Below, piece by piece: positions 1,368-49,977 of a DNA stretch of 64,000 nucleotides; the stretch's first letter is position 1, and the number at the start of each line of letters is the position of its first letter. Both the position numbers and the translations under genes were made by a program. Source of the stretch: Persicimonas caeni (GTDB lineage Bacteria > Myxococcota_A > Bradymonadia > Bradymonadales > Bradymonadaceae); contig NZ_CP041186.1 of assembly GCF_006517175.1 (NCBI RefSeq), positions 3,125,074 to 3,189,073 on the forward strand, read 5' to 3'. The notes under the pieces were generated by a model, which had not been told where the DNA came from, did no database searches, and was given only the letters and a program-made list of their open reading frames with translations.

Positions 1368-1401
1368 GTTCGGTCGAAAGCTTTAATCATTTTTTGGTAG
1401 A

Positions 1402-1417
1402 GCAATTGGCGTGCCAA
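1402..1417 (-). promoter_or_regulatory. Sigma-54 (-24/-12) promoter upstream of flgF: TGGCAC-GCCAA-TTGCT on minus strand
   Basis: Reverse complement of agcaattggcgtgccaa reads TTGGCACGCCAATTGCT, an exact TGGCAC-N5-TTGCW consensus about 35 nt upstream of the flgF start. Confidence 0.6.
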
Positions 1418-1991
1418 GCCACAATCGGCCCGAGAGGGGTGTAGGGCGGGGATTTCGGGGCCGAAAAAAAGTGGCGGGAAAATTATGCCGGGTGGGTGGG
1501 CAATTGGTTCGGGGGATGGGGGCCCGACCCGTGAACCTGCACGTGCACGTGAACGTCTCACCATCCCGCACACCTTTGTTGATGCGCTGCGTTGACGGTC
1601 GGGGCGCGGTCGTCCCCGGCCGCCGGGGTCCGTCTCGGGCCCCGCACGTGTTTGGGCAAGGCGTGTGCCTTGCAGGAAGACACGCAAGCTGGGGCGGGGA
1701 CGCCCCAGGGCGGGCGAGGACGCCGCGCGCCCCGACCCGGTTGTTCGCCTCCGCCATTTGTGTTGGATGGTGACACGTGAACGTTCACGGCCGTTCCCAC
1801 AGCAATGCGGTCAATCTTGCGATTGAGTCCCCCACTTCAGCGGCGGACCTTACAGTTCGGAGCCCCATTCCGCCCACCGGAAGCCACCCCGCACCTCACC
1901 CATACTTCTTCGGAAAAAAGTCCTCCAACGCCATCGAGGCGAGGTGTAGGCCCTGCAGAAGGCCCACGCCCGTCCGAGAAGCGCGAACGAC

Positions 1992-2618
1992 TCATCCCTC
2001 GCCGCCGCCGGCCACCAACGCGTTATCCAACTCATCCGCACGCTTTTTCGCCGGCCGGTCCTTGATCCTGCCCCAATAGTCGACGAACTCCGCCCGCTTT
2101 TCCAACGTGCCAAACTCCAGCCCAAACCCGATCTGCAGCCCCACGTACACATCCGCCGCGCTGAACCTGTCGCCGGCAATATACGGACGCTGCGACACGG
2201 CGTCGGCCAGCGTATCGAGGACGGCGGCGAGGTTGCCGTAGCCGACCATCCGCTCCTGCTCCGGAGCCACGCTAATCTCCAACGATTGGTTGGTGATCGC
2301 CGACTCGAAGGGCCCGGCCGCAAAGAAGAGCCAACGATAATACGCCGCCCGCTGGGCCGGCTCGGGCGCCAGCCCCGCCTGCGGAAATGCATCGGCCAGA
2401 TACGCACAGATCGCCGCACACTCGGTGACCACCTCATCCCCATGCCGAATCGCCGGCACCTTGCCCATCGGGTTGACGGCCAAATACTCCGCCGACTTCA
2501 TCTCGTCGCCATACTCCAGCACCACGGTCTCATACGGCGCCCCAACCTCCTCGAGCATCCACCGCACGATCCGGCCCCGCGACTGCGGATTGGTATAAAA
2601 GATGAGTTCGTCGGCCAT
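1992..2618 (-). CDS. Glutathione S-transferase family protein
   Basis: ORF MADELIFYTNPQSRGRIVRWMLEEVG... has a GST N-terminal thioredoxin-like fold and C-terminal helical domain signatures. Start codon choice (MEDSM vs MADE) is uncertain. Confidence 0.7.
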   Translation of the reverse strand: MADELIFYTNPQSRGRIVRWMLEEVGAPYETVVLEYGDEMKSAEYLAVNPMGKVPAIRHGDEVVTECAAICAYLADAFPQAGLAPEPAQRAAYYRWLFFAAGPFESAITNQSLEISVAPEQERMVGYGNLAAVLDTLADAVSQRPYIAGDRFSAADVYVGLQIGFGLEFGTLEKRAEFVDYWGRIKDRPAKKRADELDNALVAGGGEG

Positions 2619-2780
2619 GCTGTCCTCCACGGTTGGGTTGTCATCGGTTGGTTTCTGAGCAGCGCAGACCTACACCCAGGCGCCGACCTCGGTCAATCCG
2701 CGCGGGGCCGTTGCGAAACGTACGTCCTGCAGAAGGCCCGCGCCTGCTATTGTAGCAATTATGATTGAAGGGCAGGGAGG

Positions 2781-3068
2781 GGGGCCTCTCCCTCGATCCC
2801 TCTCCTTCCCTTCGCTTCGCTACGGGTGGAGAGGGGGGCCTCTCCTCGGTCCTCTCCTTCCCTCCGCTTCGTTACGGGCGGAGAGGAAGATGTCGTTTAA
2901 TCGATCTCTGTACAGGGTGCGATGTTGCTCTACCGATCTCTGTACAAGGTGCGTACTGGCAACATCTTCCTCCCCTGCGCGAAGCAAAGCGTAGCGTAGG
3001 GGAGGACCGAGGAGGGGACTCCTCCTCCGCGAAGCGAAGCGAAGTGGAGGAGGACCGAGGAGGAGGAA
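2781..3068. repeat. MITE/REP-like palindromic element, family A copy 1 (~290 bp, nested inverted repeats around the ggaggaccgaggagg / cttcgcttcgctacggg cores)
   Basis: Left arms gggcctctccctcgatccctctccttcccttcgcttcgctacgggtggagagg pair with right arms cctcccctgcgcgaagcaaagcgtagcgtaggggaggaccgaggagg. The same element recurs at 3463, 9168, 38771 and 48056. Confidence 0.85.
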
Positions 3069-3149
3069 GCCTTTTTACCTACCCCCGACGCATCTCCAAC
3101 CCCTTTGGCTGTGCGGCTCGACAGGCAAGAAAGACCCCGGCGAGCCTGC

Positions 3150-3243
3150 GGGAGGCTCTTTCGAGGATGCTCGCAGGGTCGAAAATGCCTGCCGGAGGCT
3201 CTTTCGAGGATGCTCGCAGGGTCGAAAATGCCTGCCGGAGGGG
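3150..3243. repeat. Direct tandem duplication of a ~46-bp unit (ggaggctctttcgaggatgctcgcagggtcgaaaatgcctgccgga x2)
   Basis: Two near-identical consecutive copies are visible in the sequence between the two family-A elements. Confidence 0.8.
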
Positions 3244-3462
3244 GACGCGAGGGCGCGAGATGCTCGGAAGTGCCTCGGCGAGGGGGCGGCGAGCTCGCGG
3301 GCATCCACGGAAAAAGCCCCCGGCGGCTCGCCGGGGGCTTTGCTGTCCGCGCGCGCCACGTGCGGAGGTTATGCGGTCGGCTCGACGACGTCCTCGACGA
3401 CGGCCGCGGCGGCCATGACGGCGTTGTGGAGGTGTTTTGGGGGGGTAGCAGAGATTGGGGGA

Positions 3463-3752
3463 GGGGGGCCTCTCCCTCGATCCCTCTCTTTCCCTTCGCT
3501 TCGCTACGGGTGGAGAGGGGGCCTCTCCTCGGTCCTCTCCTTCCCTTCACTTCGTTACGGGCGGAGAGGAAGATGTCGTTTAATCGATCTCTGTACAGGG
3601 TGCGATGTTGCTCTACCGATCTCTGTACCAGGTGCGTACTGGCAACATCTTCCTCCCCTGCGCGAAGCAAAGCGGAGCGTAGGGGAGGACCGAGGAGGGG
3701 ACTCCTCCTCCGCGAAGCAAAGTGAAGTGGAGGAGGACCGAGGAGGAGGAAA
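3463..3752. repeat. MITE/REP-like palindromic element, family A copy 2
   Basis: Near-identical to 2781-3068, including the internal cgatctctgtacagggtgcg direct sub-repeats. Confidence 0.85.
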
Positions 3753-3760
3753 AAAAGCCG

Positions 3761-4501
3761 TTACCCAGCCATCACCCCCCGCAACTCCTTAATCGCCGCC
3801 GACTTCAACTGACTCACCCGCCCCGGCGTCAAATCGAGGATATCGCCGATCTCGGCCAAGGTGAGCTCCTTGTTGAAATACAGGTCCAACACCAACTGCT
3901 TGCGCTCACTCAACCCCTTCAAACAGTCGACGAGTTGCTCGCGGGTCTCCTTGTAGTTGACCAGGCGGAACGGGTCGGGGGTCGGGGCCGTGAGCGAGAA
4001 CGAGACGTCGGCTTCGTCGACGAACGAGTAGGGGGCGACCTTGCCGCGGAGCTCTTGGAGCTCCTGGAGGTCCATCTCCATCTCGGCGGCGAGTTCGGCG
4101 GGTTCGGGGGCGCGGCCCAGGTTGGACTCGAGCTTCTTTTCGGCCTTTTGCAGCTTGTTGGCCTTCTGGCGCAGCCGGCGTGGGAAGAAGTCGTGCTTGC
4201 GCAGGGAGTCGAGGATGGCGCCCTTGATGCGGAACTCGGCGAAGGTGCCAAAGGGCTTGCCCTCGGACGGGTCGAAGCGCTCGTGGGCGTCGAGCAGGCC
4301 CATGACGCCGACGCTGACCAGGTCTTCGAGCTCCAGGCCGCGGATATACGGCGGCAGCCGGCGTAAGATCCGCTGGGCGACCTTGCGCACCAGGCTACCG
4401 TACTCCTCGACGAGCGCGCGGTGCTGGCGCGCTTTCTCGAGCTCCTCGTTCGACGAGCTCGACTTCTGGTAGCTGCGAATGCCTCGTTTGGCTCTATACA
4501 T
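3761..4501 (-). CDS. fliA: Flagellar sigma factor FliA (sigma-28)
   Basis: 246-aa ORF with sigma-70 region 2 and region 4 signatures (LVRKVAQRI..., LTLAEIGDILDLTPGRVSQLKSAAIKELR). Located at the end of the flhA-flhF block. Confidence 0.8.
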   Translation of the reverse strand: MYRAKRGIRSYQKSSSSNEELEKARQHRALVEEYGSLVRKVAQRILRRLPPYIRGLELEDLVSVGVMGLLDAHERFDPSEGKPFGTFAEFRIKGAILDSLRKHDFFPRRLRQKANKLQKAEKKLESNLGRAPEPAELAAEMEMDLQELQELRGKVAPYSFVDEADVSFSLTAPTPDPFRLVNYKETREQLVDCLKGLSERKQLVLDLYFNKELTLAEIGDILDLTPGRVSQLKSAAIKELRGVMAG

Positions 4502-4512
4502 CGTTCAGTCCC

Positions 4513-5844
4513 TCAACGTCCTTGTACTTCCAACTTCTCGCCTGCCGACTCCGAGCCAGGTCGCTCACCGAGCATGATCCAATCGACCAACTCCTGGCTG
4601 TCCGGGCTGGCGATGTCTTCGGGGACCCGCGGGCCGTAACACACGTGCGACACGGGCAACTCGGTGGCGAAGCTCGTCGACAGGATCGAGCCGAGACGGC
4701 GCGATTCGTCGAGCTTGGTGAACACCAGCGAGGCGGGTTGCAGGCGGGCGTACGAGCGCACCGTCTCGACCATGTCGGCGGTGGTGCGCGTGGCGCTCAT
4801 GCAGATCTCGAAGCGCAGCGCGAAGTCGTCGCGGCATGCTCGGGCAAAATCTTCGTAGGCCAGCCCCTGCGAGGGGGCGGGGGCCCAGGGGCTTCGGCCC
4901 ATCGTGTCGACCAAGATGAGGTCGAAATCGCTCAGGCGGGTGAGCGCCAGGCGCAGCTCGGCGGGGGCGGAGACCGCGAAGATGGGCACGCCCACCAGGT
5001 CGGCGTAGGTCTCGAGCTGGTACAGCCCGCCAATCCGAAACGTGTCGGCGCAGATGATGCCCACGCGCTTGTTGCCCACCAGCTTGGCGTGGGCGGCGAC
5101 CTTGGCGATGGTGGTCGTCTTGCCCACGCCCGTGGGGCCGACGAAGACGGCCACTTCGGGCTTGTCGCTCTTCGTCTCCCACAGCGGCGGGGTCGTCTCG
5201 AGGCGGTCGATCATCTGCTGCTCGATGACGTCGTGGAGCACGCCGGGGCTGAGTTCCCACTCGACGTCGGCGTTGAACGCCCAGGCGATGAGCTCCTCGA
5301 TATGCCCCTCGAGCACGCCGCGGTAGCTCAGCGCCTCGTAGATCGCGGCGATGGTCTGGCCGAAATTGTCGGTGTGCTGGGGCTGGTATATGCGCTTGAT
5401 GCCCAGGCGAATCGACTCGAGCGCGTGGTACGGCAGCTCGGGCTTCTCGGGACGCGGCGCGGGGGCCGGCGCCGGGGTGGGCGCGGGCTGCTCGGCGCGC
5501 ATCTCCTCGCGAATGCGAAGGTGGCGCACCTCCGAGCTCAGCGAGCGAATCTGCTTGGCGAGGTCCTCGACCAGCGCGACCAGGGCCGCCTTCGACGGGT
5601 CCTCCTCGATGGGCGCCTGAGTGACCGGGGCCTGTGCCTGTGTCTGGGCGTGGGGCATCGGCGGGTGGGCGAACTCGCTGCTGGAGTCGCTGGGGGCCAC
5701 CGCGATCTCGAGGTTGCGCCCGTCTTCGGCGTGGGGCAGCCGCGAGGTGCTCACGATGACGGCGTCCTCGCCCAATTCACGTTTGATCTGACGCAAGCCC
5801 TCGCGGACGTCTTTGACGCGGTATTTTCGAAGCGGAAGTGTCAT
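4513..5844 (-). CDS. flhF: Flagellar biosynthesis SRP-like GTPase FlhF
   Basis: 443-aa ORF with G1 motif VAVFVGPTGVGKTTTIAKVAA and an SRP54/FtsY-type GTPase domain. Sits between flhA and fliA. Confidence 0.75.
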   Translation of the reverse strand: MTLPLRKYRVKDVREGLRQIKRELGEDAVIVSTSRLPHAEDGRNLEIAVAPSDSSSEFAHPPMPHAQTQAQAPVTQAPIEEDPSKAALVALVEDLAKQIRSLSSEVRHLRIREEMRAEQPAPTPAPAPAPRPEKPELPYHALESIRLGIKRIYQPQHTDNFGQTIAAIYEALSYRGVLEGHIEELIAWAFNADVEWELSPGVLHDVIEQQMIDRLETTPPLWETKSDKPEVAVFVGPTGVGKTTTIAKVAAHAKLVGNKRVGIICADTFRIGGLYQLETYADLVGVPIFAVSAPAELRLALTRLSDFDLILVDTMGRSPWAPAPSQGLAYEDFARACRDDFALRFEICMSATRTTADMVETVRSYARLQPASLVFTKLDESRRLGSILSTSFATELPVSHVCYGPRVPEDIASPDSQELVDWIMLGERPGSESAGEKLEVQGR

Positions 5845-5891
5845 AGCGTTCTACCTTGAGTTACGGGTCATGCGTCTTGTTGCATCGTGCG

Positions 5892-8021
5892 TCATTGAAT
5901 CTGGGCTTGCTGGGCGCCTTCGAGTTCGCCGGCGGGCAGGCTCAATTGAGCCACGCTGACCAGCTCGGCGCTCGGGACCACCTCGCGGTGGCAAAGCACC
6001 TGAATATCCGGGAAAAACTGGGCCAAAAACTGCTCCAGGGGGCCGCGCAAATCGGGCGGAGCCAGGATGACCGGCTCGGCGTCTTTGACGGCGAATTTGC
6101 CCAGCGCCTCCTCGATGGCGCCGAACAGCCCCTGCGCGGTGACCAGGTCGCAGGCGAGCACCGGCTCGCCCTGCTGCTTGACCAGGCACTGGCGAAGCTT
6201 GTCTTCGAGGGGGCGGTCGAGCAGCGCGGCGTGCAGCGTGCCGTTCTCGTCGGTCAGCTGGGCCGAAATCTGGCGAGCCAGCCGCGCGCGGACCTGGTCG
6301 GTCAGGGCGTTGACCGAGGTGTCGGGGTGCGCGCTTTCGGCCAACGCCTCGAGCACCGAGCGCAGGTCTCGGATGGAGACGCCCTCGCTGAGCAGGCGGC
6401 GCAAGACGTTGAGCAGCTTGCCGAAGCTGAGGCGCTCGCCGACGAGTTCCTCGACCAGGCGCGGGGCCTGCAGCTTGATCTCTTCGAGGCGATCCTCGAG
6501 GTCTTCCCAGCCAAACAGCTCGGCGGCGTGCTGACGGATGACCTCGGTGACGTGGGTGGTGATCACCGCCTCGTGGTCGACCACGGTGTAGCCGGCGGCC
6601 TCGGCGCGGTGGCGCTGGCTCTCGTCGACCCACACCGCGTCGAGCCCGAAGGTCGGGTCCTTGGTGGGCTCGCCGTCGATGCGCTGGGTGACGAAGCCGG
6701 GGTTGATGGCCATGAGCTTGTTCTGGCGAAGCTCGGCCGAGGCAATGGGCACGCCCTTGAGCAACAGGCGATAGGCGCCGGGCGCCATCTGCAGGTTGTC
6801 GCGGATATGAATCGACGGGACGATGATGCCCAGGTCGGAGGCGTATTGGCGGCGCACCTGCACGAGGCGCTTGAGCAAGGAGCCGCCGGAGGCCTCGTCG
6901 ACGACCTTGACCAGCCCGAAGCCGATCTCGAGGGCGAGGGTCTCGACGCGCAGCAGCTCGTCGAGCTCGGGCTCGGCCTTCTCGTCCTTCTTTTCGTCGG
7001 CGTCGTCCAGCTCGACGGTCTCGTCGGCCGCCTGCGAGACGCGCCAGCCGAGCCAGCCAATGGCGCCGGCCATCGTCGCAAAGATCATGAAGGGCATGCC
7101 GGGGACCAGCCCCAGCAAAAAGAGGGTGACCGAGGCGCCGAACAACACGCGCTGGTCGCCCAGGAGCTGACCGGTGAGCTCGTCGCCCAGCTCGGCCGCG
7201 CTGGCCGCGCGGGTGACGACCACGCCGGTGGCCGTCGAGATGAGCAACGCCGGAATCTGGCTGACCAGGCCGTCGCCCACCGTGAGCACGGTGTAGGTCT
7301 GCGCGGCGTCACCGAAGGCCATGCCGCCCTGGAAGACGGCGATGAGCAGGCCGCCCATGATGTTGATGGCGGTGATGATCAGGCCGGCGATGGCGTCGCC
7401 GCGCACGAACTTGGAGGCGCCGTCCATCGCCCCGTAGAAGTCGGACTCGCGCTCGACGTCGCTGCGCTTTTGGCGCGCGTCCTCTTCGGTCAACGTGCCC
7501 GCGGCGAGCTCGGCGTCGATGGCCATCTGCTTGCCGGGCAGCGCGTCGAGGGTGAAGCGCGCGGCGACCTCGGCGATGCGCCCGGCGCCCTTGGTGATGA
7601 CCATGAAGTTGATGAGCACCAAGATCAGGAAGACGATGATGCCGATGATGCTGTTGCCGCCGACCACGAAGTGGCCGAAGGTCTCGATGATGCGCCCGGC
7701 GTTGGCCTTGCCCTCGGCCGCGCCCAGCAAGATGAGCCGGGTCGAGGCGACGTTCAGGCCCAGGCGAAAGAGCGTGGAGATGAGCAGCAGCGCCGGCAGC
7801 ACTGAGAACTCGAGCGGCCGGTTGACGAAGACGGCGGTGAGCAGGATGAGCACCGCCACGGTGATGTTGACCGACAACAAAAGGTCGAGCAGCACCGGCG
7901 GCAGCGGCAGCACCATCAGCGCGATGACGCTGAGCAGCACGAACATCAGCGGAGCGCTCTTGGCGCCCTGGAGCCTCTCGGTCAGGCTCATCTGCGTGCT
8001 GGATTTGGTGGCCGAACTCAT
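5892..8021 (-). CDS. flhA: Flagellar type III export apparatus protein FlhA
   Basis: 709-aa ORF with N-terminal polytopic membrane domain and large cytoplasmic domain. Typical FlhA size and motifs (FHFVVGGNSIIGIIVFLILVLINF). Confidence 0.85.
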   Translation of the reverse strand: MSSATKSSTQMSLTERLQGAKSAPLMFVLLSVIALMVLPLPPVLLDLLLSVNITVAVLILLTAVFVNRPLEFSVLPALLLISTLFRLGLNVASTRLILLGAAEGKANAGRIIETFGHFVVGGNSIIGIIVFLILVLINFMVITKGAGRIAEVAARFTLDALPGKQMAIDAELAAGTLTEEDARQKRSDVERESDFYGAMDGASKFVRGDAIAGLIITAINIMGGLLIAVFQGGMAFGDAAQTYTVLTVGDGLVSQIPALLISTATGVVVTRAASAAELGDELTGQLLGDQRVLFGASVTLFLLGLVPGMPFMIFATMAGAIGWLGWRVSQAADETVELDDADEKKDEKAEPELDELLRVETLALEIGFGLVKVVDEASGGSLLKRLVQVRRQYASDLGIIVPSIHIRDNLQMAPGAYRLLLKGVPIASAELRQNKLMAINPGFVTQRIDGEPTKDPTFGLDAVWVDESQRHRAEAAGYTVVDHEAVITTHVTEVIRQHAAELFGWEDLEDRLEEIKLQAPRLVEELVGERLSFGKLLNVLRRLLSEGVSIRDLRSVLEALAESAHPDTSVNALTDQVRARLARQISAQLTDENGTLHAALLDRPLEDKLRQCLVKQQGEPVLACDLVTAQGLFGAIEEALGKFAVKDAEPVILAPPDLRGPLEQFLAQFFPDIQVLCHREVVPSAELVSVAQLSLPAGELEGAQQAQIQ

Positions 8022-8070
8022 CGTTTGCTTATCTCGTGTACTTCGTTTCTCGTTTCGTCACCCTTGCGGG

Positions 8071-9132
8071 TTAGCGCTTCTTTTTCTTCCAGACGTAGGC
8101 CAGAACTTCGGCCACCGCGCGGTAGAAGTTTTCGGGGATTGGCTCCCCGACTTCTACGTGTCTATGCAGTGTGCGTGCCAACGGAGGTTGGGTGACCATC
8201 GGCACGTCGTTTTCGGTGGCGATTTCGCGGATACGCAGCGCCTTGTGGTCGAGTCCTTTGGCGACCACCATGGGCACGCCGAAGTCGGGATCGTAGCGCA
8301 GCGCCACGGAGACGTGGGTGGGGTTGTTGATGATGACATCGGCCTCGGGCACCGCCTCGATGAGCCGGTTGGCGTCGAGCAGGCCGCGGTGCTGCTGGCG
8401 GCGCCGGCTCTTGATGAGCGGGTCGCCCTCGCTTTGCTTGTGCTCTTGCTTGGCCTCCTGCTTGGTCATCTTCATCTTTTCGTTCATCTGATGGCGCTGC
8501 CAAAAGAAGTCGGCGATGCCCAGAAGGACCATGGTCAAAGCGGCGGCAAAGAGCGGGTAGACGGAAATTTTCTCGAAGTAGCGGGCAAATTCTGCCGGGT
8601 GCATGTGCAGCAGTTGCCCGGGGGCCGGCGCGAAGGCGGTCAGCGCCAGGGCGGCCACCAGGCCGATGACCACGACCTTCGCCAGCGTCTTGATGAGCTG
8701 GGCGACGGTGTCCTTGGACAGAAACTTCTTTTTGAAGCCCTTGATGGGGTCGAGCTTCTCGAGCTTGGGCTCGAGCGGTTTGCCGCTCAAAAGCGGGCCG
8801 GTCTGCATCATGTGGGCGGCGATGGCGGCCACGCACATCACCCCGAAGACGGGCACCAACGGGGCGACGACCGCCTCGACGAGGCCCGAGAAGACGACCT
8901 CGGGGCTGCTGATGAAGTTCTCCGACTCGTCGAGCCGCGCCCACACGCCGCTCAGGGCCGCCGAGATGGGACCGCTGGCCAGCGTCGAGCCGACCCACAG
9001 CGCCGCCGCGCTGGCTACGAGCATGACGCCGGCGGCGAGCTCCTGGCTCTTGGCGACTTCACCGCGTTCGCGGAATTGTCGTTTGCGCTGGGGTGTGGCT
9101 TGTTCTGTTTTTTCTTGGCCGGACTCGCTCAT
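8071..9132 (-). CDS. flhB: Flagellar export apparatus protein FlhB
   Basis: 353-aa ORF with four TM helices and the NPTH autocleavage motif (IINNPTHVSVALRYDPD). Confidence 0.85.
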   Translation of the reverse strand: MSESGQEKTEQATPQRKRQFRERGEVAKSQELAAGVMLVASAAALWVGSTLASGPISAALSGVWARLDESENFISSPEVVFSGLVEAVVAPLVPVFGVMCVAAIAAHMMQTGPLLSGKPLEPKLEKLDPIKGFKKKFLSKDTVAQLIKTLAKVVVIGLVAALALTAFAPAPGQLLHMHPAEFARYFEKISVYPLFAAALTMVLLGIADFFWQRHQMNEKMKMTKQEAKQEHKQSEGDPLIKSRRRQQHRGLLDANRLIEAVPEADVIINNPTHVSVALRYDPDFGVPMVVAKGLDHKALRIREIATENDVPMVTQPPLARTLHRHVEVGEPIPENFYRAVAEVLAYVWKKKKR

Positions 9133-9167
9133 GGTGAGGAGTGGTGCAAGGGGTGGGCCAAGCCGGT

Positions 9168-9386
9168 GTCGTCCTCTCCCTCGATCCCTCTCCTTCCCTT
9201 CGCTTCGCTACGGGTGGAGAGGGGGGCCTCTCCTCGGTCCTCTCCTTCCCTCCGCTTCGCTACGGGTGGAGAGGAAGACGTTGCTCTATCGATCTCTGTA
9301 CGGGGTGCGTTGAAGCAACATCTTCCTCCCCTGCGCGAAGCGAAGCGTAGCGCAGGGGAGGACCGAGGAGGACCGAGGAGGAGGAA
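9168..9386. repeat. MITE/REP-like palindromic element, family A copy 3 (shorter), inserted between flhB and fliR inside the flagellar export operon
   Basis: Same arms as copies 1 and 2 (ctccctcgatccctctccttcccttcgcttcgctacgggtggagagg ... ggaggaccgaggaggaccgaggagg). It fills the whole flhB-fliR intergenic gap. Confidence 0.85.
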
Positions 9387-9391
9387 AGTAC

Positions 9392-10177
9392 TTAGTTTGC
9401 CACGAGCATGCGCATCTGATTGGCCACGTCCAAGAGCTGGTCACTCATCAACGCGGCGAACGACGGCATGGTGAAGTAGAGCATGATCATGCCGGCGGGG
9501 ATGGTCAGCGCGAAGCCGAACGCAAAGAGGTTCATCTGCGGGGCGACCTTGGCCATGACGGCCAAGACGACGTAGACCATCAGGCCGGCGGCCATGACTG
9601 GGGCGGCCAGGCGCAGGCTGACCGAGAAGAACTGCGAGCCCAGGTGGGCCATGTCGAGACGCGAGACCGTGGTCATGGCCACGCTGCCCGGCGGGAGCAT
9701 GCGGAAGGTGTCGAAGACCGCGCTGATGATGTGTAGGTGGGCGTCGACGGCGAAGAAGACCAGGAGGCCGATGACCTTGAGGATGCGGCTGATGACGGTG
9801 GTGCTCGCGCCGGTCGACGGGTCGACGAAGCTCGCGAAGCCCAGGCCCATCGAGTAGCTGGCCATCTGGCCCATGCCGGTGGCGAAGGCCATGATCACGC
9901 GCACCATAAGCCCCATCGCCAGGCCGAGGATGAACTCGGGGGCGAGCACGGCCAGCCAGGCGGCGATGCCTGCTTCCGGGGGGAGGTGGGGGAAGCCGAG
10001 CGCCCAGCACATCACCAGGGTCAGGTGCAGGGCCAAGAGCGCGCGCACCCTCGGCGGCACCGCCGAGTTGGTGCCCAGCGGCGTGCCCGACAAGACGCCC
10101 AGCAGGCGCATCATGACCGCCGCGCCGCCCAGTATGTAGCCGTCGGCGGCAAATAGGAGCGCGCTCAGCTCGTTCAC
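9392..10177 (-). CDS. fliR: Flagellar export apparatus protein FliR
   Basis: Polytopic membrane protein with FliR motifs. The longer ORF-track version (to 10234) overlaps fliQ, and a GTG start at 10177 gives a GTGA overlap with the fliQ stop (translational coupling). Confidence 0.75.
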   Translation of the reverse strand: MNELSALLFAADGYILGGAAVMMRLLGVLSGTPLGTNSAVPPRVRALLALHLTLVMCWALGFPHLPPEAGIAAWLAVLAPEFILGLAMGLMVRVIMAFATGMGQMASYSMGLGFASFVDPSTGASTTVISRILKVIGLLVFFAVDAHLHIISAVFDTFRMLPPGSVAMTTVSRLDMAHLGSQFFSVSLRLAAPVMAAGLMVYVVLAVMAKVAPQMNLFAFGFALTIPAGMIMLYFTMPSFAALMSDQLLDVANQMRMLVAN

Positions 10178-10449
10178 GGCAGCTGTCCTACCGTTTCGAT
10201 GGAGCCGATGATCTCTTGGGCGAAGGTCAGCCAATGCTGCAACAGCCAGCCGCTAAGCCCCCACAACACTGCCCCGATGCCCACGATTTTGGGCACGAAG
10301 GTGAGCGTCATCTCGTTGATCTGGGTGGCCGCCTGCAGAATGCTGACAACCAGGCCGATCGCCAGGGCGGCGGCCATGAACGGGCCCCCCAAGAGCACGG
10401 CGACCCACATGGCCTGACGCGCCAATTCACTGACCCACTCGGGACTCAT
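10174..10449 (-). CDS. fliQ: Flagellar export apparatus protein FliQ
   Basis: 91-aa two-TM protein with typical FliQ sequence (LLGGPFMAAALAIGLVVSILQAATQINEMTLTFVPKI). Confidence 0.85.
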   Translation of the reverse strand: MSPEWVSELARQAMWVAVLLGGPFMAAALAIGLVVSILQAATQINEMTLTFVPKIVGIGAVLWGLSGWLLQHWLTFAQEIIGSIETVGQLP

Positions 10450-10450
10450 C

Positions 10451-11287
10451 TCAACCTCCCACGATGCTTCGCGCCAGGCTGCCGATGACCAGGTTCCAGC
10501 CGTCGGCGAGCACGAAGAGCAAGAGTTTGATGGGCAGCGAGACCATGACCGGGGGCACCATCATCATGCCCATGGCCATGAGCACCGAGGCGACGACCAC
10601 GTCGATGACGATGAACGGGATATAGAGCAGCGCGCCCATGATGAAGGCGGTGCGAAGCTCGCTGAGCATGAACGCGGGCACGAGCACCAGGGTGCTCACC
10701 TCGTCGAAGCTCTTGGGCCGCTGCGACTGCGTCATGCTGACGAAGAGGCGCAGGTCTTTGGGCCGGGTGTGGCGCGACATGAACCGGCGAAGGGGCTGCA
10801 CGCCCGCGTCGATGGCCTGTTGGTCGGTCAGTTGGCCGGCGCGGTACGGCTCGATGGCCTGCTCGTTGATGTCCGAGATGACCGGGCTCATCGTAAAGAG
10901 GCACAAAAAGAGGCTCAGGCCGATGAGCACCTGGCTTGGCGGCAGCGCCTGGGTGCCCAGCGCCTGCTTGAGGAAGCCGAGGACCACGACGATGCGCGTA
11001 AAGCTTGTGACGCTGACCAAGAGCGCGGGCAACAGGGTGAGCCCGAGCAGCAAGAAGATGATCTTGAGCACGGGCACCAGGCGCCCATCGCTCTCGCCCA
11101 GGTCGATGCGCACGCCGATGCTGGCGTTGCCTGTGTCGACGGCGTTGGTGTCGATGGTCTGCGCGCCTGTGGCGGCGGCCGCGTTGGCCGGGGCGCCCTG
11201 CGCGCTCGCCGCGACGGGGACCAGGAGCAAGCAGACCGCGATGACGACGGCGCTCAGGAGCAGATAAAAGTGGTGAATCGGGTTCAC
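10451..11287 (-). CDS. fliP: Flagellar export apparatus protein FliP
   Basis: 278-aa ORF with a signal-like N-terminus and conserved FliP core (VPAFMLSELRTAFIMGALLYIPFIVIDVVVASVLMAMGMMMVPP). Confidence 0.85.
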   Translation of the reverse strand: MNPIHHFYLLLSAVVIAVCLLLVPVAASAQGAPANAAAATGAQTIDTNAVDTGNASIGVRIDLGESDGRLVPVLKIIFLLLGLTLLPALLVSVTSFTRIVVVLGFLKQALGTQALPPSQVLIGLSLFLCLFTMSPVISDINEQAIEPYRAGQLTDQQAIDAGVQPLRRFMSRHTRPKDLRLFVSMTQSQRPKSFDEVSTLVLVPAFMLSELRTAFIMGALLYIPFIVIDVVVASVLMAMGMMMVPPVMVSLPIKLLLFVLADGWNLVIGSLARSIVGG

Positions 11288-12204
11288 GACCGCTCCCAGT
11301 TCTTGATGCCGGCCTGGCTCTTGAGCGACTCGAGGCCGCAGACCACGCTGTCCGATTCGAGGTTGGCGCGCGAGGCGCGGCGCAGCTCGCTGCGGGCCTC
11401 ATCGCGAGAGCTTCGGGTATTTCGGGTATTTCGGGTGCTCCGGGAGCTTCGGTCGGCGTCGGTGCGTCGGAAGAGCCCGTCGTGTCCCTCGGGCCTGGGT
11501 CCGGAGTCGATCGCCTCTTGGAGCATCGCCTGCCAGGTATCTTCGTCGCTCTGGCGGGAGGCTGCCTGGCCTAGTGCGGTGGAGCTCAGTGCGGTGGAGC
11601 CGAGTGCAGTGGAGCTGCGGGCTGCGGGAACTGCGTCGAGCTCGGCGAGTACTTGCATGTGGCCGTCGGAGAGGCCGAGCAGGAGCCGACGCCCCTCGAC
11701 CTCGACGATCGTCAGCTGGTGCTTGGTCCCCAGCTTCATGCTGCGAACGTGCTCCATCTCGACGAGCGCGTTCGGGGTCTGGCCGGTGCGGTATTTCTGG
11801 TAGGCCCAGCCGCCCAGCGCGATCAACCCGGCGCCGCCGAAGAGGATCCAGAACGACGACATCGGGACTTCGCCGGCCGGGGTGGCGGGCTTTTGGACCT
11901 CGCCGTCCCCTACGGGTTGGCCGGCGCCCTGCTCGAGCAAGGCGCGGTAGGCGTCGGCGTCCTCGGCTTGCTCGTCGGATGGTGATGGGTCGGCGGGCGG
12001 GTCGGCCGCCACCTTGTCAGCGGCCGGTTTGTCAGCGGCCGGTTTGTCAGCAGCCGGCTTGTCAGCGGCGGCATGATCGGGCTGGGCGGCATCTTTTTCC
12101 GCCCGTGGCTCCGAGTTTTTTGCCGGTTCCTTCGCGCTGGCAGGTACGGCGCTCGCCGCCATCACCAACACGGTGGCCATCATCATCAAAATTCGCAGGT
12201 TCAT
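11284..12204 (-). CDS. fliO: Flagellar biosynthesis protein FliO (with KPAAD low-complexity repeats)
   Basis: Single-TM protein directly upstream of fliP with ATGA overlap. The N-terminus carries (ADKPA)n repeats. The C-terminal part is FliO-like (HVRSMKLGTKHQLTIVEVEGRRLLLG). Confidence 0.6.
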   Translation of the reverse strand: MNLRILMMMATVLVMAASAVPASAKEPAKNSEPRAEKDAAQPDHAAADKPAADKPAADKPAADKVAADPPADPSPSDEQAEDADAYRALLEQGAGQPVGDGEVQKPATPAGEVPMSSFWILFGGAGLIALGGWAYQKYRTGQTPNALVEMEHVRSMKLGTKHQLTIVEVEGRRLLLGLSDGHMQVLAELDAVPAARSSTALGSTALSSTALGQAASRQSDEDTWQAMLQEAIDSGPRPEGHDGLFRRTDADRSSRSTRNTRNTRSSRDEARSELRRASRANLESDSVVCGLESLKSQAGIKNWERS

Positions 12205-12222
12205 TTTCGGCTCCAGCGAGCC

Positions 12223-12612
12223 TCAACCCTTCTTGAGGCTCTCAATCACTTCGTCGGTATCGATGACCGCGGTCAGTCGAATGCCGAAGCGTTCGTTGAC
12301 CACGACCGCCTCACCGCGGGCGATGAGCACGCCGTTGACGCGTACGTCCAGCGGCTCGGTGGCCGCCTTCGACAGCTCGATCATCGATGAGGGACCCAAC
12401 GACAATATCTCGGCGAGGGTCTTGCGGCTTCGGCCCAACTCGACGGTCACCTCGAGGGGGATATCTCCCAGAAACTCGAGGCCGGGCAGGTCGTGCTGCC
12501 CGTCGACCAGGCGCTGGTTATCCAGCCCTGCCTGGTCAGACTGCATGTTCTGTGCCGAACCTTGTCCCGAGGGATCGAAAGCGTTGTTGGCCGGGTTCAT
12601 CTCGTCTTGCAT
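12223..12612 (-). CDS. fliN: Flagellar motor switch protein FliN
   Basis: 129-aa ORF with a C-terminal SpoA/FliN domain (LEVTVELGRSRKTLAEILSLGPSSMIEL...VLIARGEAVVVNERFGIRLTAVI). Confidence 0.85.
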   Translation of the reverse strand: MQDEMNPANNAFDPSGQGSAQNMQSDQAGLDNQRLVDGQHDLPGLEFLGDIPLEVTVELGRSRKTLAEILSLGPSSMIELSKAATEPLDVRVNGVLIARGEAVVVNERFGIRLTAVIDTDEVIESLKKG

Positions 12613-12628
12613 GGCAATATCCTCAGGA

Positions 12629-13675
12629 TCAGGAAGCTTCGTGTAGGGAGGTCAATTCGACGGCCAGGTTGCCGTGGCTCACCGAGATCTGGGCGCGGTA
12701 CTTGGGCCGGCCCTCGATGCTCACGCACACCGGCTCGCTGGCCGACTGGTCCAGGCGCAGCACGTCGCCGGCCTTGAGCGAGGCGAGTTGGCGAAGGGTG
12801 ATATTGGTGCGGCCCAACTCGCCGATGAGCTCGACGGGGAGGCCCGAGGCACGTTGCTTGAGCGTCTGCTGCCAGTCGTGGTCGTCGCGCTCGCTTCGCT
12901 GGTAGCGCCCCGAGGCGAATAGCTCGCGGTAGTCAGCAAGAAGTTCGAAGGGCAGCGCGAAGCTCATCGACCCGCTCTGCGAGCCGAGGTCGATGTTGAA
13001 GGTCGACGCCAGCACCCAGGCCGACGGGCTGGTAAAGGCGATATTCGATGGCGAGGTGTCCACGCGCAGGTGACGCATCGCCACGGGCACCACCGGGCGC
13101 CACGCCTCTTCGACGGCGCGGCCGAAGATGCGCACCAGCCGGCGGATCAAACGCAGCTCGATGGCCGAGAAGCGCTCGCGCTTGGGCGGCGCGGCGTCCG
13201 CGCCCCCGCTCAGGCCGGCGCCGCCGAAGAGGCGCTCGAGCAGGCCGAACAACAACTTCATCTCGATGGAGACCATGCCGTAGCCGTCGAGGGTCTCGAA
13301 CTCGACCAGGTTGTAGCACCCCGGCGATTCGAGCTTGTCGAGCAGCTCGCCCCACGGCTCCATGCCGTCGGCGCGCGCCTCGACGTGGGTCTCGACGTTG
13401 AGCACGTGGGACAGCTCGATGGCCAAGTATTCGGCCACCCGCGCGTCGATGAGCTCGAGGGTGGGCAGCCGGCTGCGCTCGACGCGGCGCTCGCCGGTCA
13501 GGTTGAACGCTCGGTGCTCACGCTCCTCGACGTGGTGGGGCAGGTTCTCGACCAGCGGCGCCGCCTCCTCGACCTCTTCGACAGGAGGCTCGATCGACTC
13601 GGGCAGCGAGAGGCTGGAGTCGGCGGGAAGCTCCTCTGGAGCCTCGCCATCTAAGGGTTCGAATGAAAGATCCAC
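12629..13675 (-). CDS. fliM: Flagellar motor switch protein FliM
   Basis: 348-aa ORF with a CheC-like middle domain and a C-terminal FliN-like domain (LGRTNITLRQLASLKAGDVLRL). Immediately upstream of fliN. Confidence 0.8.
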   Translation of the reverse strand: MDLSFEPLDGEAPEELPADSSLSLPESIEPPVEEVEEAAPLVENLPHHVEEREHRAFNLTGERRVERSRLPTLELIDARVAEYLAIELSHVLNVETHVEARADGMEPWGELLDKLESPGCYNLVEFETLDGYGMVSIEMKLLFGLLERLFGGAGLSGGADAAPPKRERFSAIELRLIRRLVRIFGRAVEEAWRPVVPVAMRHLRVDTSPSNIAFTSPSAWVLASTFNIDLGSQSGSMSFALPFELLADYRELFASGRYQRSERDDHDWQQTLKQRASGLPVELIGELGRTNITLRQLASLKAGDVLRLDQSASEPVCVSIEGRPKYRAQISVSHGNLAVELTSLHEAS

Positions 13676-13688
13676 GACGGGCTCCCGC

Positions 13689-14238
13689 TCACTGCATCAT
13701 GAAGTCAGTGAAATACAGCTGCTGGACGGCGCGCGGCGAGACCACTTTCTTGGCCTCCTCGATGAGCGCCTCGCGCAGCCGGGCTTTGTCCTCCGGCGAG
13801 CGCAACTCGGCGGTGGTATACGCCGACAGCTTGCTCAAGTAGGCGTCGCGCAGGCGCACCTTGACCTCGTCGATCTTGGTGACGGCGTCTTTGTCGGTCG
13901 CCTCCAGGGTGATGCTCACGCGCAAGTAGCGCGGCTCGCCCGGCTCGTTGAGGTTGACCACGAAGGGGTCGAGGGGAACCAGGGGGCCCGGCGTGGCGCT
14001 CGGAGCTGCCTCGACCTCCGCTTCGGCCGGCTCGGCGGCCGCTTCGGGTGGGTTGGCGGCCTGAGCTCCTCCCATCAGCGAGGGGCCCATGAAGAAGAAG
14101 AAGGCCGCCAAGCCCGCGTTCGACACCAAGATGGCGGCGACCACGGCGATGATGACGCCTTTGTTCGATCCGCCCCCGGAGGCCTCGGCGGCCTCTTCGG
14201 CGCCCTCGACGTTTTCCTGCTCGTTATCCTTACTCATT
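13689..14238 (-). CDS. fliL: Flagellar basal-body-associated protein FliL
   Basis: Single-TM protein with a C-terminal FliL domain (FVVNLNEPGEPRYLRVSITLEATD...). Start taken at MSKDNEQENV. The ORF track extends upstream over the motB end in another frame. Confidence 0.7.
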
Positions 14239-15016
14239 TCGGTGCCCCCTGAGGCGTTGAAGAAGTCGGTTCGGCGGCCGGAGGGCCGGTCAAGATACTC
14301 ATTCGCAGTAGATTGCTCTGGCGCAAAAAGCGCTTCTCGCGGCGGCCGGCCTCGTGGCCAAAGCCCATGATGCGCAGCCGGTCGGGCTCGATGCCGCGCT
14401 GCAACAGGAAGCGGGCGACTCCGTCGGCGCGGCGAAGCGCCAGGTCCCAGCCCGCTTCGACCTCCTTGAAGGACTCGCCGCCCTTGGCGTAGGTCTCCAC
14501 GGCGACGTTGAACTGCGGCGGGCCAACCAGACTGACCAGTTGGCGCAAGAAGCGCTGGGCGGCCGGCTGCAACTCGTCGCTCCCCTCTTTGAAGGAGATC
14601 TGCCCGTCGACGTTGATGTGGATGCCCTCGGGCCGGTGCTCGACCCACGCCCGCCCTTCGAGGCCGGTGGCCTTGAAGAGCGCGGAGACCAGCGACTCGA
14701 CCTTCTTCTTGGAGCGCTGTTTGACGGGCATGTTTAGCTCCTTGCGCAGCTCTTCGACCGCCTCGTTCATGGGCGTGCCCGCGATGAGCTCGCGCGTGGA
14801 GACCATCGCCGACTCGCTCTGCTGGGGATCGACCATCAGACCGTCACGCATCGCCTGACGAATCTGCTGGTCGTCGAGGCTCGACATGGTCAGCAGCAGC
14901 ACGAAGAAGGTGAGCATGAGCATCAACAGGTCGGAGAACGTCGACATCCACGCGTTGGGATCGCCGGTCGGCCCCGACGGCTTCGAGCCTCCACGTTTGT
15001 CACGTCGGCCCATCAC
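14234..15016 (-). CDS. motB: Flagellar stator protein MotB (OmpA-like peptidoglycan-binding domain)
   Basis: N-terminal TM plug region (WMSTFSDLLMLMLTFFVLLLTMSS) and a C-terminal OmpA-like domain. Confidence 0.75.
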   Translation of the reverse strand: MMGRRDKRGGSKPSGPTGDPNAWMSTFSDLLMLMLTFFVLLLTMSSLDDQQIRQAMRDGLMVDPQQSESAMVSTRELIAGTPMNEAVEELRKELNMPVKQRSKKKVESLVSALFKATGLEGRAWVEHRPEGIHINVDGQISFKEGSDELQPAAQRFLRQLVSLVGPPQFNVAVETYAKGGESFKEVEAGWDLALRRADGVARFLLQRGIEPDRLRIMGFGHEAGRREKRFLRQSNLLRMSILTGPPAAEPTSSTPQGAPK

Positions 15017-15696
15017 GAACCTCCCTTGCGCACCGGCGGCAAGAAGACGACCTCGACGCGGCGCTGCTGGGTCTCACCGGTGCGCAACGGGCGAGTGGCG
15101 CCGTAGCCGGCGGCGGTCAACATGTCGGCGGGCACCCCGGCGGCGTGGTGCAGGTAGCGGTACACCGCCGCGGCGCGCGCGGCCGACAGGTACCAATTCG
15201 ACTGCGGCCCCGAGCTGGGGACCACGTCGGTGTGCCCCTCGACGCGTACCGGAAAGCCCACGCGCACGATGAGATCGGCCAGCCCGTCGAGCTGCGGAAA
15301 GCTTCGCGGGTTGATGCGCTGGCTGCCCGAGGCGAATAGGAGCCGGCTCTCGAAGCGAATTACCACCCGGCCGTCGCTGCGCTCGGCGACGTTGGCGCCC
15401 TGCAGGTCGTGAATCTCGAGCAGGGCCTGCACGCGGCGTTTGAGGTTTTGGGGCTGCTTGCGTGACTTCTTCTTGTGGGGCATCTCGGGGCCGAACTCCC
15501 CCTGCTTGAAGCCGGGGAGCACGCCGAAAGTACCGATCAACGAGTTGAGCACGATGCGGCTTCGGGCCTCGTCGATGGTCGCCAGGCTGTTGAGCATGAT
15601 GAAGAAGGCCAACAGGATCATCGACAGCGCCGTAAAGAGCACGATGAACTCGTCGCTTTTCGGCTCGTCCTCTTTTTTCTTTCTGCGTCGTCCCAT
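15013..15696 (-). CDS. Second MotB/OmpA-family stator protein (paralogue)
   Basis: TM segment FIVLFTALSMILLAFFIMLNSLA plus an OmpA-like C-terminus (SGSQRINPRSFPQLDGLADLIVRVGFPVRVEGHTD...YGATRPL). It overlaps both neighbouring genes by 4 bp. Confidence 0.7.
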   Translation of the reverse strand: MGRRRKKKEDEPKSDEFIVLFTALSMILLAFFIMLNSLATIDEARSRIVLNSLIGTFGVLPGFKQGEFGPEMPHKKKSRKQPQNLKRRVQALLEIHDLQGANVAERSDGRVVIRFESRLLFASGSQRINPRSFPQLDGLADLIVRVGFPVRVEGHTDVVPSSGPQSNWYLSAARAAAVYRYLHHAAGVPADMLTAAGYGATRPLRTGETQQRRVEVVFLPPVRKGGS

Positions 15697-15704
15697 GATC
15701 TGGC

Positions 15705-16496
15705 TCAGCCGTTGTCACTGCGTTGGGAGGGCGGAAGCTCGACTTCGAGTTGCTGGGCCAGGATGCGCGGGTTCTCGCCGCGGGCGATGCCCATCAAGCC
15801 CTTGACGACGAGCGCCTTGGCCTGCAGCTCCTCTTGGTGGCGAATGCGCAATTTGCCGGCCACGGGGGTGAACACGACGTTGGCCAGAAGCGCGCCGTAG
15901 AAGGTGGTCAGAAGGGCGACGGCCATCGCGGGGCCGATCGCCGAGGGGTCTTCCATGTTCTGGAGCATGTTGACCAGACCGATGAGCGTACCGACCAGAC
16001 CGAGTGCGGGCGCCGAGGAGGCGAAGGTCTCGAAGATCTGGGCGCCCGTGCCGTGGCGAGTCTCCATGCCCTCGAGCTCGTCGTACATCAGGTCTTCGAT
16101 CTTCTCGGGCTCGATGCCGTCGACCAGAAGCTGCACGCCGCGCTTCATGAAGTCGTCCTCGATGCTCGACAGGCTGCCTTCGAGCGACAAGATCCCTTCT
16201 TTGCGCGCCGTGTCGGCGAACTCGATGATCTGGGTGTTCTGCTCGCTGATGTCGGGCACCTCGTAGCGAAATACGTTGATGGCGACCTTCATGGCCGAGA
16301 GCACCCGGGCCATCGGGAAGCTGATCAAGCCGACGCCGAACGTACCGCCGACCACGATCATCATGCTGGGCACGTCCAAGAAGGAGGTCAGCGAACCGCC
16401 GGTGAGAATACTACCGATGATGAGGCCGAAGGCGGCCACCAGGCCAATGATGGTTGCGATGTCCACGACTGCGTCTCTCTCTCCTGAGGCAGACAA
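15705..16496 (-). CDS. motA: Flagellar stator protein MotA (MotA/TolQ/ExbB proton channel family)
   Basis: 263-aa four-TM protein with a conserved C-terminal channel region (PALGLVGTLIGLVNMLQNM...ALLTTFYGALLANVVFTPVAGKL). Confidence 0.8.
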   Translation of the reverse strand: MSASGERDAVVDIATIIGLVAAFGLIIGSILTGGSLTSFLDVPSMMIVVGGTFGVGLISFPMARVLSAMKVAINVFRYEVPDISEQNTQIIEFADTARKEGILSLEGSLSSIEDDFMKRGVQLLVDGIEPEKIEDLMYDELEGMETRHGTGAQIFETFASSAPALGLVGTLIGLVNMLQNMEDPSAIGPAMAVALLTTFYGALLANVVFTPVAGKLRIRHQEELQAKALVVKGLMGIARGENPRILAQQLEVELPPSQRSDNG

Positions 16497-16698
16497 TCAA
16501 ACAGTTCCGGGCCCGAGTTGGAGCAAACTCCGTACCAGCCCGAAAACAAAGTTCGTGCTCCGCTCGCACACCCCGTAGAAGGCCTACTCGGAAAATTGTG
16601 CCGGATCCGAAGGTGGATTTTTTGCCGGGTGGGTAGGGATCGCGCCTGGCGCCAAGACCCACGACCTCACGACGCCACGACCTCACGACTCCAGCCGT

Positions 16699-16714
16699 TG
16701 GCACACCCCTTGCT
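16699..16714 (+). promoter_or_regulatory. Sigma-54 (-24/-12) promoter: TGGCAC-ACCCC-TTGCT
   Basis: Exact TGGCAC-N5-TTGCW match about 20-80 nt upstream of the first plus-strand gene of the signalling operon. It lies in the divergent intergenic region next to motA. Confidence 0.6.
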
Positions 16715-17242: not shown

Positions 17243-17245
17243 ATC

Positions 17246-18745: not shown

Positions 18746-18787
18746 TCAGGCGGGCCGCCAGCCCATCGACCCCAACTTGCCAAAGCA

Positions 18788-48010: not shown

Positions 48011-48055
48011 TCACACAAACGAGCCCCCATCTTGCCCGGAGACACCGCGCCAAGG

Positions 48056-49968: not shown

Positions 49969-49977
49969 GGAGCGAAA

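Follow-up and report, generated by a model that had tools for sequence, protein, structure and literature searches.

It is well established that flagellar genes can be under sigma-54 control, as are motAB- and fliA-containing units in Rhodobacter sphaeroides (PMC7277832, PMC3930126, PMC3162934), and such control is textbook knowledge in Pseudomonas, Vibrio, Campylobacter, Helicobacter, Caulobacter and Rhodobacter. The Myxococcota are known more for gliding motility and for their many sigma-54 activators. Within this phylum, the predatory bradymonadial species Persicimonas caeni (genome 8 Mb, 65% GC) has been described as carrying flagella and showing flagellar motility, unlike the non-flagellated Bradymonas sediminis (PMC7188933), and a literature search found no paper combining Bradymonadales, flagella and sigma-54. 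Here we analyze a 64-kb stretch of the P. caeni genome (the window, to which all coordinates refer unless a relative's locus is named) and propose that its flagellar cluster is probably expressed from three sigma-54 promoters through a candidate enhancer dyad and a receiver-less activator encoded at 21524-22618, with sigma-54 acting before sigma-28. The system is of a well-known kind in a lineage without an earlier description and, because such control is textbook elsewhere, will not surprise the specialist; what it provides is a first regulatory map for the P. caeni flagellum, comprising the three promoters together with candidates for the enhancer (15 nt) and the activator, and the order of the two sigma factors.

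The four-tier hierarchy of Pseudomonas and Vibrio (FleQ/FlrA, followed by FleSR/FlrBC with sigma-54 and then by FliA) resembles the P. caeni locus in combining TGGCAC-N5-TTGC flagellar promoters with an AAA+ activator (PMC3930126, PMC6424431). As in those organisms, fliA ends a putatively sigma-54-driven flhA-flhF-...-fliA string, which places sigma-54 before sigma-28, and genes for activators of the P. caeni type lie near fliD-fliS-fliT or flgB/fliE in relatives. Unlike its counterparts there, however, the P. caeni activator carries neither a FleQ nor a REC domain, no fleN/flhG stands between flhF and fliA, and motA-motB head a putative sigma-54 unit instead of being late sigma-28 genes. In the Fla1 system of Rhodobacter (Cereibacter) sphaeroides (FleQ, FleQ/FleT, RpoN2, FliA), fliA and the stator genes motA/motB belong to the class that sigma-54 activates together with FleQ/FleT (PMC7277832), and in P. 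caeni motAB and fliA likewise fall in a sigma-54-type unit. The P. caeni locus, however, holds no second activator or rpoN copy and belongs to the Myxococcota rather than the Alphaproteobacteria.

Two further systems bear on the activator itself. FlbD, which acts at the ftr enhancers of Caulobacter crescentus, is its best NCBIfam match, but the score of 366 bits is below half of the cut-off of 750 and the alignment begins only at model position 119, so that it covers the AAA+ and helix-turn-helix (HTH) parts and no REC domain. FlbD is controlled by its partner FliX and apparently not by sensor-kinase phosphorylation, a precedent for control in trans, and FliA, which P. caeni has, is not used in Caulobacter flagellar biogenesis (PMC3930126). 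According to the title of a paper cited in PMC3096577, the divergent Caulobacter sigma-54 flagellar units flaN/flbG share ftr elements. In overall architecture, an AAA+ domain and an HTH with a short N-terminal tail, the P. caeni protein is similar to PspF and HrpR/HrpS (the PspF class in PMC3162934); such a protein without a regulatory domain would therefore be constitutively active unless restrained by a partner. It nevertheless scores below the cut-offs of both PspF models (251.6 versus 443.55 and 218.7 versus 529), has no PspA- or HrpV-like neighbor, and lies in a flagellar and two-component context.

The sigma-54-type motifs on which the proposal is built are the following:
1401-1416, minus strand: exact -24/-12 sigma-54 promoter motif TGGCACGCCAATTGCT upstream of flgF (PflgF)
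16699-16714, plus strand: exact sigma-54 promoter motif TGGCACACCCCTTGCT upstream of fliJ (PfliJ)
16522-16537, minus strand: sigma-54-type motif TGGTACGGAGTTTGCT, TGGTAC-N5-TTGCT, with one mismatch and an intact GG/GC core, upstream of motA (PmotA)
50259-50274, plus strand: third exact sigma-54 motif TGGCACACGCCTTGCA, 5' of a hemerythrin gene (ATG at 50490) and outside the flagellar cluster
9145-9160, minus strand: one-mismatch motif TGGCCCACCCCTTGCA, 13 nt 5' of the flhB ATG, a possible but weak candidate for an internal flhB promoter

The first two had been reported by a first-pass annotation of the sequence as exact promoters bracketing the flagellar and signaling loci. Both are indeed present and exact, and PfliJ lies where it had been placed; the minus-strand site, however, occupies 1401-1416 rather than 1402-1417, and the bracket encloses a further site, PmotA, which that annotation had missed. 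The fliJ unit is divergent from motA, as had been noted, with the amendment that motA has a sigma-54-type promoter of its own. PflgF ends 40 nt before the flgF ATG (1361), PfliJ ends 82 nt 5' of the fliJ ATG (16796), and PmotA lies 56 nt 5' of the motA GTG (16466), the latter two back to back in the motA-fliJ gap, 161 bp apart and divergent. With starts placed about 12 nt 3' of the GC element, transcription is predicted to begin near 1390(-) for flgF and near 16725(+) for fliJ, leaving 5' untranslated regions of about 29 and 71 nt, respectively, and near 16511(-) for motA, 44 nt before its start codon.

Matches to the pattern TGGCACNNNNNTTGCW (TGGCAC-N5-TTGCW) are far more frequent than expected: the window holds three against 0.04 expected by chance (an enrichment of about 75-fold), none of 100 dinucleotide-preserving shuffles reached that number, and block shuffles contained a mean of 0.06. 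All three are intergenic, in a window of which 13% is intergenic, each is co-oriented with the next gene, and in each the GG and GC dinucleotides of the pattern are spaced by exactly 10 bp. A relaxed scan that kept GG and GC and allowed at most two other mismatches added two intergenic, correctly oriented sites, namely PmotA and 9145-9160(-). In the motA and fliJ gaps of P. caeni we found no sigma-28-like and no good sigma-70-like site.

The remaining sites call for more caution. If used, the 9145 site, which is specific to this lineage, would start transcription only about 2 nt before the flhB ATG; the relative L093 carries cGGCAC-GAACC-TTGCg 43 nt 5' of flhB, and in other relatives fliR and flhB overlap and the site has no counterpart. 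We considered whether it belongs to a repeat element inserted between fliR and flhB, but it adjoins that lineage-specific insertion and lies outside it. A sigma-54-like site within flhB (8165-8180, minus strand) is found, unshifted, in every relative. Its codons specify PPLAR(T/A)LH, a conserved peptide of FlhB, and since its recurrence is explained by that coding constraint, we do not count it as promoter evidence. Finally, a two-mismatch sigma-54-like site at 1655-1670 has 14 nt (GGCACACGCCTTGC) in common with the 50259 site.

To compare the promoters across relatives, we discarded a reference-genome scan with FlhB, which yielded only relatives of at most 41% identity and was not used for footprinting, and turned to a large protein collection, from which relatives with 47-57% FlhB identity on long contigs provided the seven loci L082-L088. 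Synteny is well kept among them, and their intergenic sequence is not alignable with that of P. caeni. Despite these diverged flanks, the motif recurs upstream of orthologous genes: it is exact in four of the five loci that carry flgF (P. caeni, L083, L084 and L085) and, upstream of motA, in four of eight (L082, L083, L087 and L088), with one mismatch in P. caeni and two in L086, while a one-mismatch motif precedes fliJ in L082. Additional intergenic one-mismatch sites lie 5' of flhA (L085) and of flhF (L087 and L088). By our own estimate, a 300-nt gap would contain an exact match by chance with a probability of about 1e-4.

The comparison also bears on the signaling genes behind PfliJ. The fliJ-kinase-HDOD synteny is kept in L082, L083 and L085, and in the latter two a fliJ-kinase-HDOD-REC series is fused directly behind motA-motB-motB-fliL, where it is predicted to be read from sigma-54 and/or sigma-28-type promoters. 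As these genes stand either behind a sigma-54 promoter of their own or in the motA unit, depending on the genome, their membership in the flagellar regulon is supported; the first-pass proposal that a multi-kinase signaling operon shares the sigma-54 regulon of the flagellar genes thereby gains support from both motif conservation and gene fusion. Furthermore, L085 has a sigma-28-type promoter (TAAA-N16-GTCGATGA) in place of the sigma-54 motif upstream of motA, and L083 has both. In late genes of the relatives, sigma-28-type promoters precede flgM (L085) as well as fliC and fliD (L091). The same operons thus appear to switch between sigma-54 and sigma-28-type promoters across relatives, that is, to undergo promoter-class turnover within one regulon, which makes the group a useful case of regulatory turnover. 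The sigma-28-type promoters of these relatives, those at motA in L083 (about 45 nt 5' of the gene) and L085 included, follow TAAA-N15/16-GCCGATGA with 9-11 of 12 matches.

A closer relative, represented by two samples (L089 and L090), provides a natural footprint; its activator and that of P. caeni are 89% identical. Of its flagellar genes (L089 1-3100 and L090) only remnants are left, among them the 5' part of fliA, a fragment of flhB and a truncated fliJ start, with the activator gene beyond them, in what looks like a recent loss of flagella; the sigma-54 promoter, the dyad described below, the activator and the activator's right-hand neighbors are retained. Alignment with the P. caeni gap reveals just two conserved blocks, the promoter, where the 19-nt GTTGGCACACCCCTTGCTA is identical within otherwise diverged DNA, and the dyad, which lies about 97 nt 5' of the promoter at equal spacing in P. 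caeni and in L089/L090. In the same remnant, kinase fragments have been fused into an intact open reading frame of 334 codons, followed by the activator gene.

Gibbs sampling of the 200 nt 5' of 13 promoter candidates, with no prior input, returned the 15-nt dyad CGGAAAA-N4-TGCCG, located 45-120 nt 5' of the -24 element in the sampled promoters and about 80-130 nt 5' of the predicted P. caeni starts. Its copies at the flagellar promoters of the window are:
1462-1476 (CGAAAAAAAGTGGCG) and 1476-1490 (GGGAAAATTATGCCG): two adjacent copies, about 80-95 nt 5' of the predicted flgF start
16589-16603 (CGGAAAATTGTGCCG): dyad shared by motA and fliJ, with a weaker copy at 16613-16627 (CGGCAAAAAATCCAC)

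With a matrix built from the relatives only, the flgF copies score 14.0 and 13.6 bits, and the window as a whole contains six matches of at least 14 bits, compared to 0.82 in shuffles, all six of them in the flagellar cluster. The 16589 and 16613 copies lie at about -85 and -109 from the predicted motA start and at -129 and -105 from the predicted fliJ start, and in L089 the dyad is a perfect palindrome, CGGAAAACTTTTCCG. Given its position, dyad symmetry and conservation, the element fits an activator site, and we regard it as a candidate upstream activator sequence for a dimeric Fis-type HTH. The 50259 motif has no strong copy and, since it also lies outside the flagellar cluster, probably answers to a different activator. 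Further matches to the matrix occur at 1911 and 3308, in the large fliA-flgF gaps. Two other enhancer candidates were rejected: a direct repeat of CCACGACCTCACGAC (two copies, 16659-16692) beside PfliJ is not conserved in L089/L090, and the CGTGCACG and TTCACGTG motifs 5' of flgF occur too few times and show no conservation.

The activator is encoded downstream of the signaling genes:
21524-22618, plus strand: sigma-54 activator with Sigma54_activat (PF00158), AAA_lid_14 (PF25601) and Fis-type HTH_8 (PF02954) domains

Its AAA+ domain is recognized with an E-value of 3.9e-71 and includes a GAFSGA loop at residue 117, whereas profile searches of the protein found no REC (PF00072) or FleQ (PF06490) domain, and the N-terminal stretch ahead of the AAA+ module is only about 45 residues long. 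The missing receiver is not an artefact of start-codon choice, because the reading frame opens only 9 nt 5' of the ATG, and the receiver-less activator of the first-pass annotation therefore stands. Its further assignment as FleQ/FlrA-style does not: FleQ and REC domains are absent, and the core is nearest to REC-bearing activators labeled FlrC, so that the protein is not a member of the FleQ/FlrA family but has the core of a flagellar activator and has lost its receiver. The closest homologs are themselves receiver-less proteins of 340-400 residues, many from Bradymonadia, with short, unconserved N-termini and mostly GAFSGA loops, and the next group consists of REC-bearing proteins of 444 residues with a GAFTGA loop, labeled FlrC by their sources and about 54% identical over 87% of the length. 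We define the receiver-less, flagellum-linked proteins here as a clade on the basis of these comparisons. The 298-nt gap 5' of the activator gene contains a cluster of TGCACGA / CGTGCACG repeats (21275-21380), which accounts for 8 of the 16 intergenic TGCACG occurrences of the window and may be an operator array; a TGGCAC without a matching -12 element lies at about 21313.

Flagellar linkage of the family is seen in relatives where a receiver-less enhancer-binding protein (EBP) is embedded in flagellar clusters, with the gene orders fliC-fliD-fliS-fliT-...-EBP-flgB-flgC-fliE-fliF-fliG-fliH-fliI in L092 and fliL-fliJ-kinase-HDOD-REC-fliC-fliD-fliS-fliT-kinase-EBP in L091. In a metagenome scan, 10 of the 11 best-ranked relatives, all ten on contigs longer than 3 kb, adjoin fliF/fliG/flhA/flhB, the exception, L094, being on a contig of 2.8 kb; these best-ranked metagenomic relatives carry REC-like N-termini. 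Domain searches found no other sigma-54 activator encoded in the window, and among the candidates to activate the three promoters the 21524-22618 protein is the most likely one.

The genes that the promoters would serve were mapped from third-position GC, Pfam, NCBIfam and the genome annotation, and the profile searches agree with the first-pass identities of flgF, motA, the FliJ-like protein, the histidine kinase, REC-HDOD and REC-histidine kinase:
633-1361 (flgF) and 1-588 (5' part of flgG), minus strand: Pfam matches; the genome annotation continues with flgA-flgH-flgI
3761-16466, minus strand: motA-motB-motB-fliL-fliM-fliN-fliO-fliP-fliQ-fliR-(260-nt gap)-flhB-flhA-flhF-fliA, the string predicted to be read from PmotA
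3761-4501, minus strand: fliA (sigma-28), last gene of the motA string
16796-17242, plus strand: fliJ, above the NCBIfam TIGR02473 cut-off
17246-18745, plus strand: histidine kinase (Pfam/NCBIfam)
18788-20017, plus strand: REC-HDOD protein (Pfam/NCBIfam)
20014-21225, plus strand: REC-histidine kinase (Pfam/NCBIfam)

As its genes are tightly packed or overlapping, fliJ-kinase-REC-HDOD-REC-kinase (16796-21225) is a probable operon; beyond it, the plus strand continues with the 298-nt gap, the sigma-54 activator and a hybrid kinase. A terminator-like hairpin marks the end of fliA (3770-3756). On the minus strand, flgG and flgF are separated by about 630 nt from a glutathione S-transferase (GST) gene, and a second gap, of about 1.1 kb, lies between that gene and fliA, flhF, flhA and flhB. 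The fliA-flgF interval of P. caeni (about 2.4 kb, 1362-3760) contains the GST gene, repeat elements and the extra dyad-like matches, and in relatives flgF follows fliA after about 100-830 nt. In P. caeni, as in all of L082-L088, motA is succeeded by two consecutive motB paralogs (14234-15696), both of which encode MotB_plug and OmpA domains, so that the motA-motB-motB stator unit is conserved.

Together, these elements suggest the following mechanism. PflgF would drive flgF-flgG and the genes beyond, PmotA would drive the genes from motA to fliR and probably also flhB-flhA-flhF-fliA, and PfliJ would drive fliJ and the three two-component signaling genes. By analogy with sigma-54 systems in general, sigma-54 RNA polymerase would bind the -24 GG and -12 GC elements as a closed complex, and a hexameric AAA+ activator seated at the dyad some 80-130 bp upstream would loop over and open the promoter with ATP. 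PmotA and PfliJ could be served by one enhancer, as they stand back to back at short distance and share a dyad region. Lacking a phospho-accepting domain, the activator cannot be switched by phosphorylation and would have to be controlled through its own level or a partner protein, and with fliA last in the PmotA unit, sigma-54 activity would come before the sigma-28-dependent late genes. We infer sigma-54 dependence, start sites, operon extents and the dyad-binding protein from the DNA, and consider the motifs themselves to be very probably working sigma-54 promoters, a reading supported by their enrichment, placement and orientation, by their recurrence in relatives, by the L089/L090 footprint, by the dyad and by the flagellar-linked activator family. 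The activator gene lies 3' of the PfliJ unit on the same strand, with no terminator-like hairpin found between them. A more far-reaching version, in which the receiver-less, GAFSGA-loop activators from flagellar clusters of Bradymonadia-like bacteria form a distinct class of flagellar master regulators, devoid of phospho-control and controlled in trans by the PfliJ signaling proteins, with positive feedback and a bidirectional enhancer dyad, strikes us as rather improbable.

Several observations weigh against this reading. Neither the window nor the 1.7 Mb of compared loci yielded an rpoN match in a tblastn search with an approximate E. coli RpoN query; a published supplement lists RpoN as a role pooled over several genomes (PMC7188933). 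The motifs are not universal, with no sigma-54 motif found 5' of flgF in L082 or 5' of motA in L084 and L085, and with a fliJ promoter common only to L082, L089 and L090 among the relatives compared. A weak sigma-70-like match (TTGGCA-17-AAAAAT, 9 of 12) overlaps PflgF. The best match to the dyad matrix, CGGAAAAAGATGCCG (12087-12101, minus strand, 20.7 bits), falls within the coding sequence of fliO, where no promoter is close by, and the matrix is therefore not fully specific. Finally, homologs of the activator with 52-57% identity occur in Lujinxingia and Microvenator, and since these genera are not described as flagellated in the literature examined, the family may not be purely flagellar. 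As to the fliO site, a second dyad match lies 24 nt from the first (12087-12125, minus strand), in the Lys/Ala/Asp-rich low-complexity linker that follows the FliO signal peptide; both matches are probably spurious, and an internal regulatory site, which they may also represent, is not favored.

The alternative that survives best accepts the promoters as real sigma-54 promoters and assigns them to another activator from a different part of the 8-Mb genome, such as a protein of FleQ or FlrC type that carries a regulatory domain, while the 21524 protein would serve the neighboring hybrid kinase/OmpR-type module or some other target. The link between this protein and the dyad is indeed indirect; in L089/L090 the activator has kept the hybrid kinase, Hpt protein and OmpR-type regulator on its right although the flagellar genes are gone; the Lujinxingia and Microvenator homologs point the same way; and for Myxococcus xanthus, likewise a member of the Myxococcota, 53 activators of this kind are reported (PMC3162934). 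Against this stand the embedding of homologs in the L091 and L092 flagellar clusters, the metagenomic relatives beside flagellar genes, and the absence of another such activator from the window, while the dyad and promoter that L089/L090 retain 5' of the activator, on the same strand, would fit autoregulation. On balance we find it doubtful that a different activator operates the three promoters.

A second alternative concerns the dyad alone, which could be a DNA-bending element (an intrinsic A-tract bend, or a sequence bound by IHF or by a different nucleoid protein) that assists looping, with the activator bound farther upstream or acting from solution. Bending elements are found at about -80 to -130 in many sigma-54 promoters, and the dyad, A/T-rich in a genome of 65% GC, falls between about -80 and -130; moreover, we saw no other conserved upstream block. 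Some flagellar activators also act without DNA binding, as exemplified by Helicobacter pylori FlgR (PMC3930126). The GC-rich flanks of the dyad, however, are arranged with the symmetry (CGG...CCG, extending to the full palindrome in L089) that is typical of a dimeric HTH site, and the activator has retained its Fis-type HTH domain, so that a mere bending role seems to us a rather unlikely account of the element. That the motifs are non-functional, as chance matches or relics in operons read from sigma-70 or sigma-28 promoters, is highly improbable: the sigma-70-like match at PflgF, the sigma-28-type promoters 5' of motA in L083 and L085 and the coding artefact within flhB lend the idea some substance, yet it leaves unexplained the enrichment over chance, the recurrence before orthologous genes with perfect identity in the L089/L090 gap, the conserved dyad at enhancer distance, and the want of a sigma-28-like or good sigma-70-like site at P. 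caeni motA and fliJ.

Outside the proposed sigma-54 flagellar units, the window is rich in repeats. The 50259 motif ends 216 nt before the hemerythrin ATG, a distance due to an intervening 168-nt element that resembles a miniature inverted-repeat transposable element (MITE); two copies, 83% identical and bounded by inverted repeats (TAAGTAACTGCACGGAGATTGTGCGG) some 27 nt long, lie at 50306-50472(+) and 48700-48863(-), and removal of the intervening copy would bring the promoter to about 48 nt from the hemerythrin gene. The leader was considered as a riboswitch or structured RNA and rejected, as it corresponds to the MITE, and an Rfam search of the whole window had no hits. Upstream, between an esterase-like gene and the hemerythrin gene, the 16-nt unit GGGAATGAGCGAAGAA is repeated in tandem about 14 times over 49938-50193, 65-320 nt 5' of the 50259 motif, and may be a binding-site array or a simple repeat.

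A dispersed, GA/GC-rich and internally palindromic repeat family, similar to repetitive extragenic palindromic (REP) sequences or MITEs, is found at 2785-3068, 3468-3751, 9173-9371, 48017-48162 and 38793-38861. One copy fills the fliR-flhB gap, a gap missing from most relatives, where the two genes overlap, and two copies lie 683 nt apart between fliA and the GST gene. A palindromic repeat of 78 nt (53255-53535 and 55697-55774) is present three times in tandem 3' of a beta-propeller gene and once more, inverted, at a distance of 2.1-2.4 kb; the copies flank genes for a Pacifastin-domain protein and an endonuclease/exonuclease/phosphatase-family protein. Finally, two 106-nt inverted repeats, 92% complementary (59728-59833 and 61677-61782), flank a 1.8-kb segment with two unannotated minus-strand open reading frames, and this segment may be mobile or invertible.

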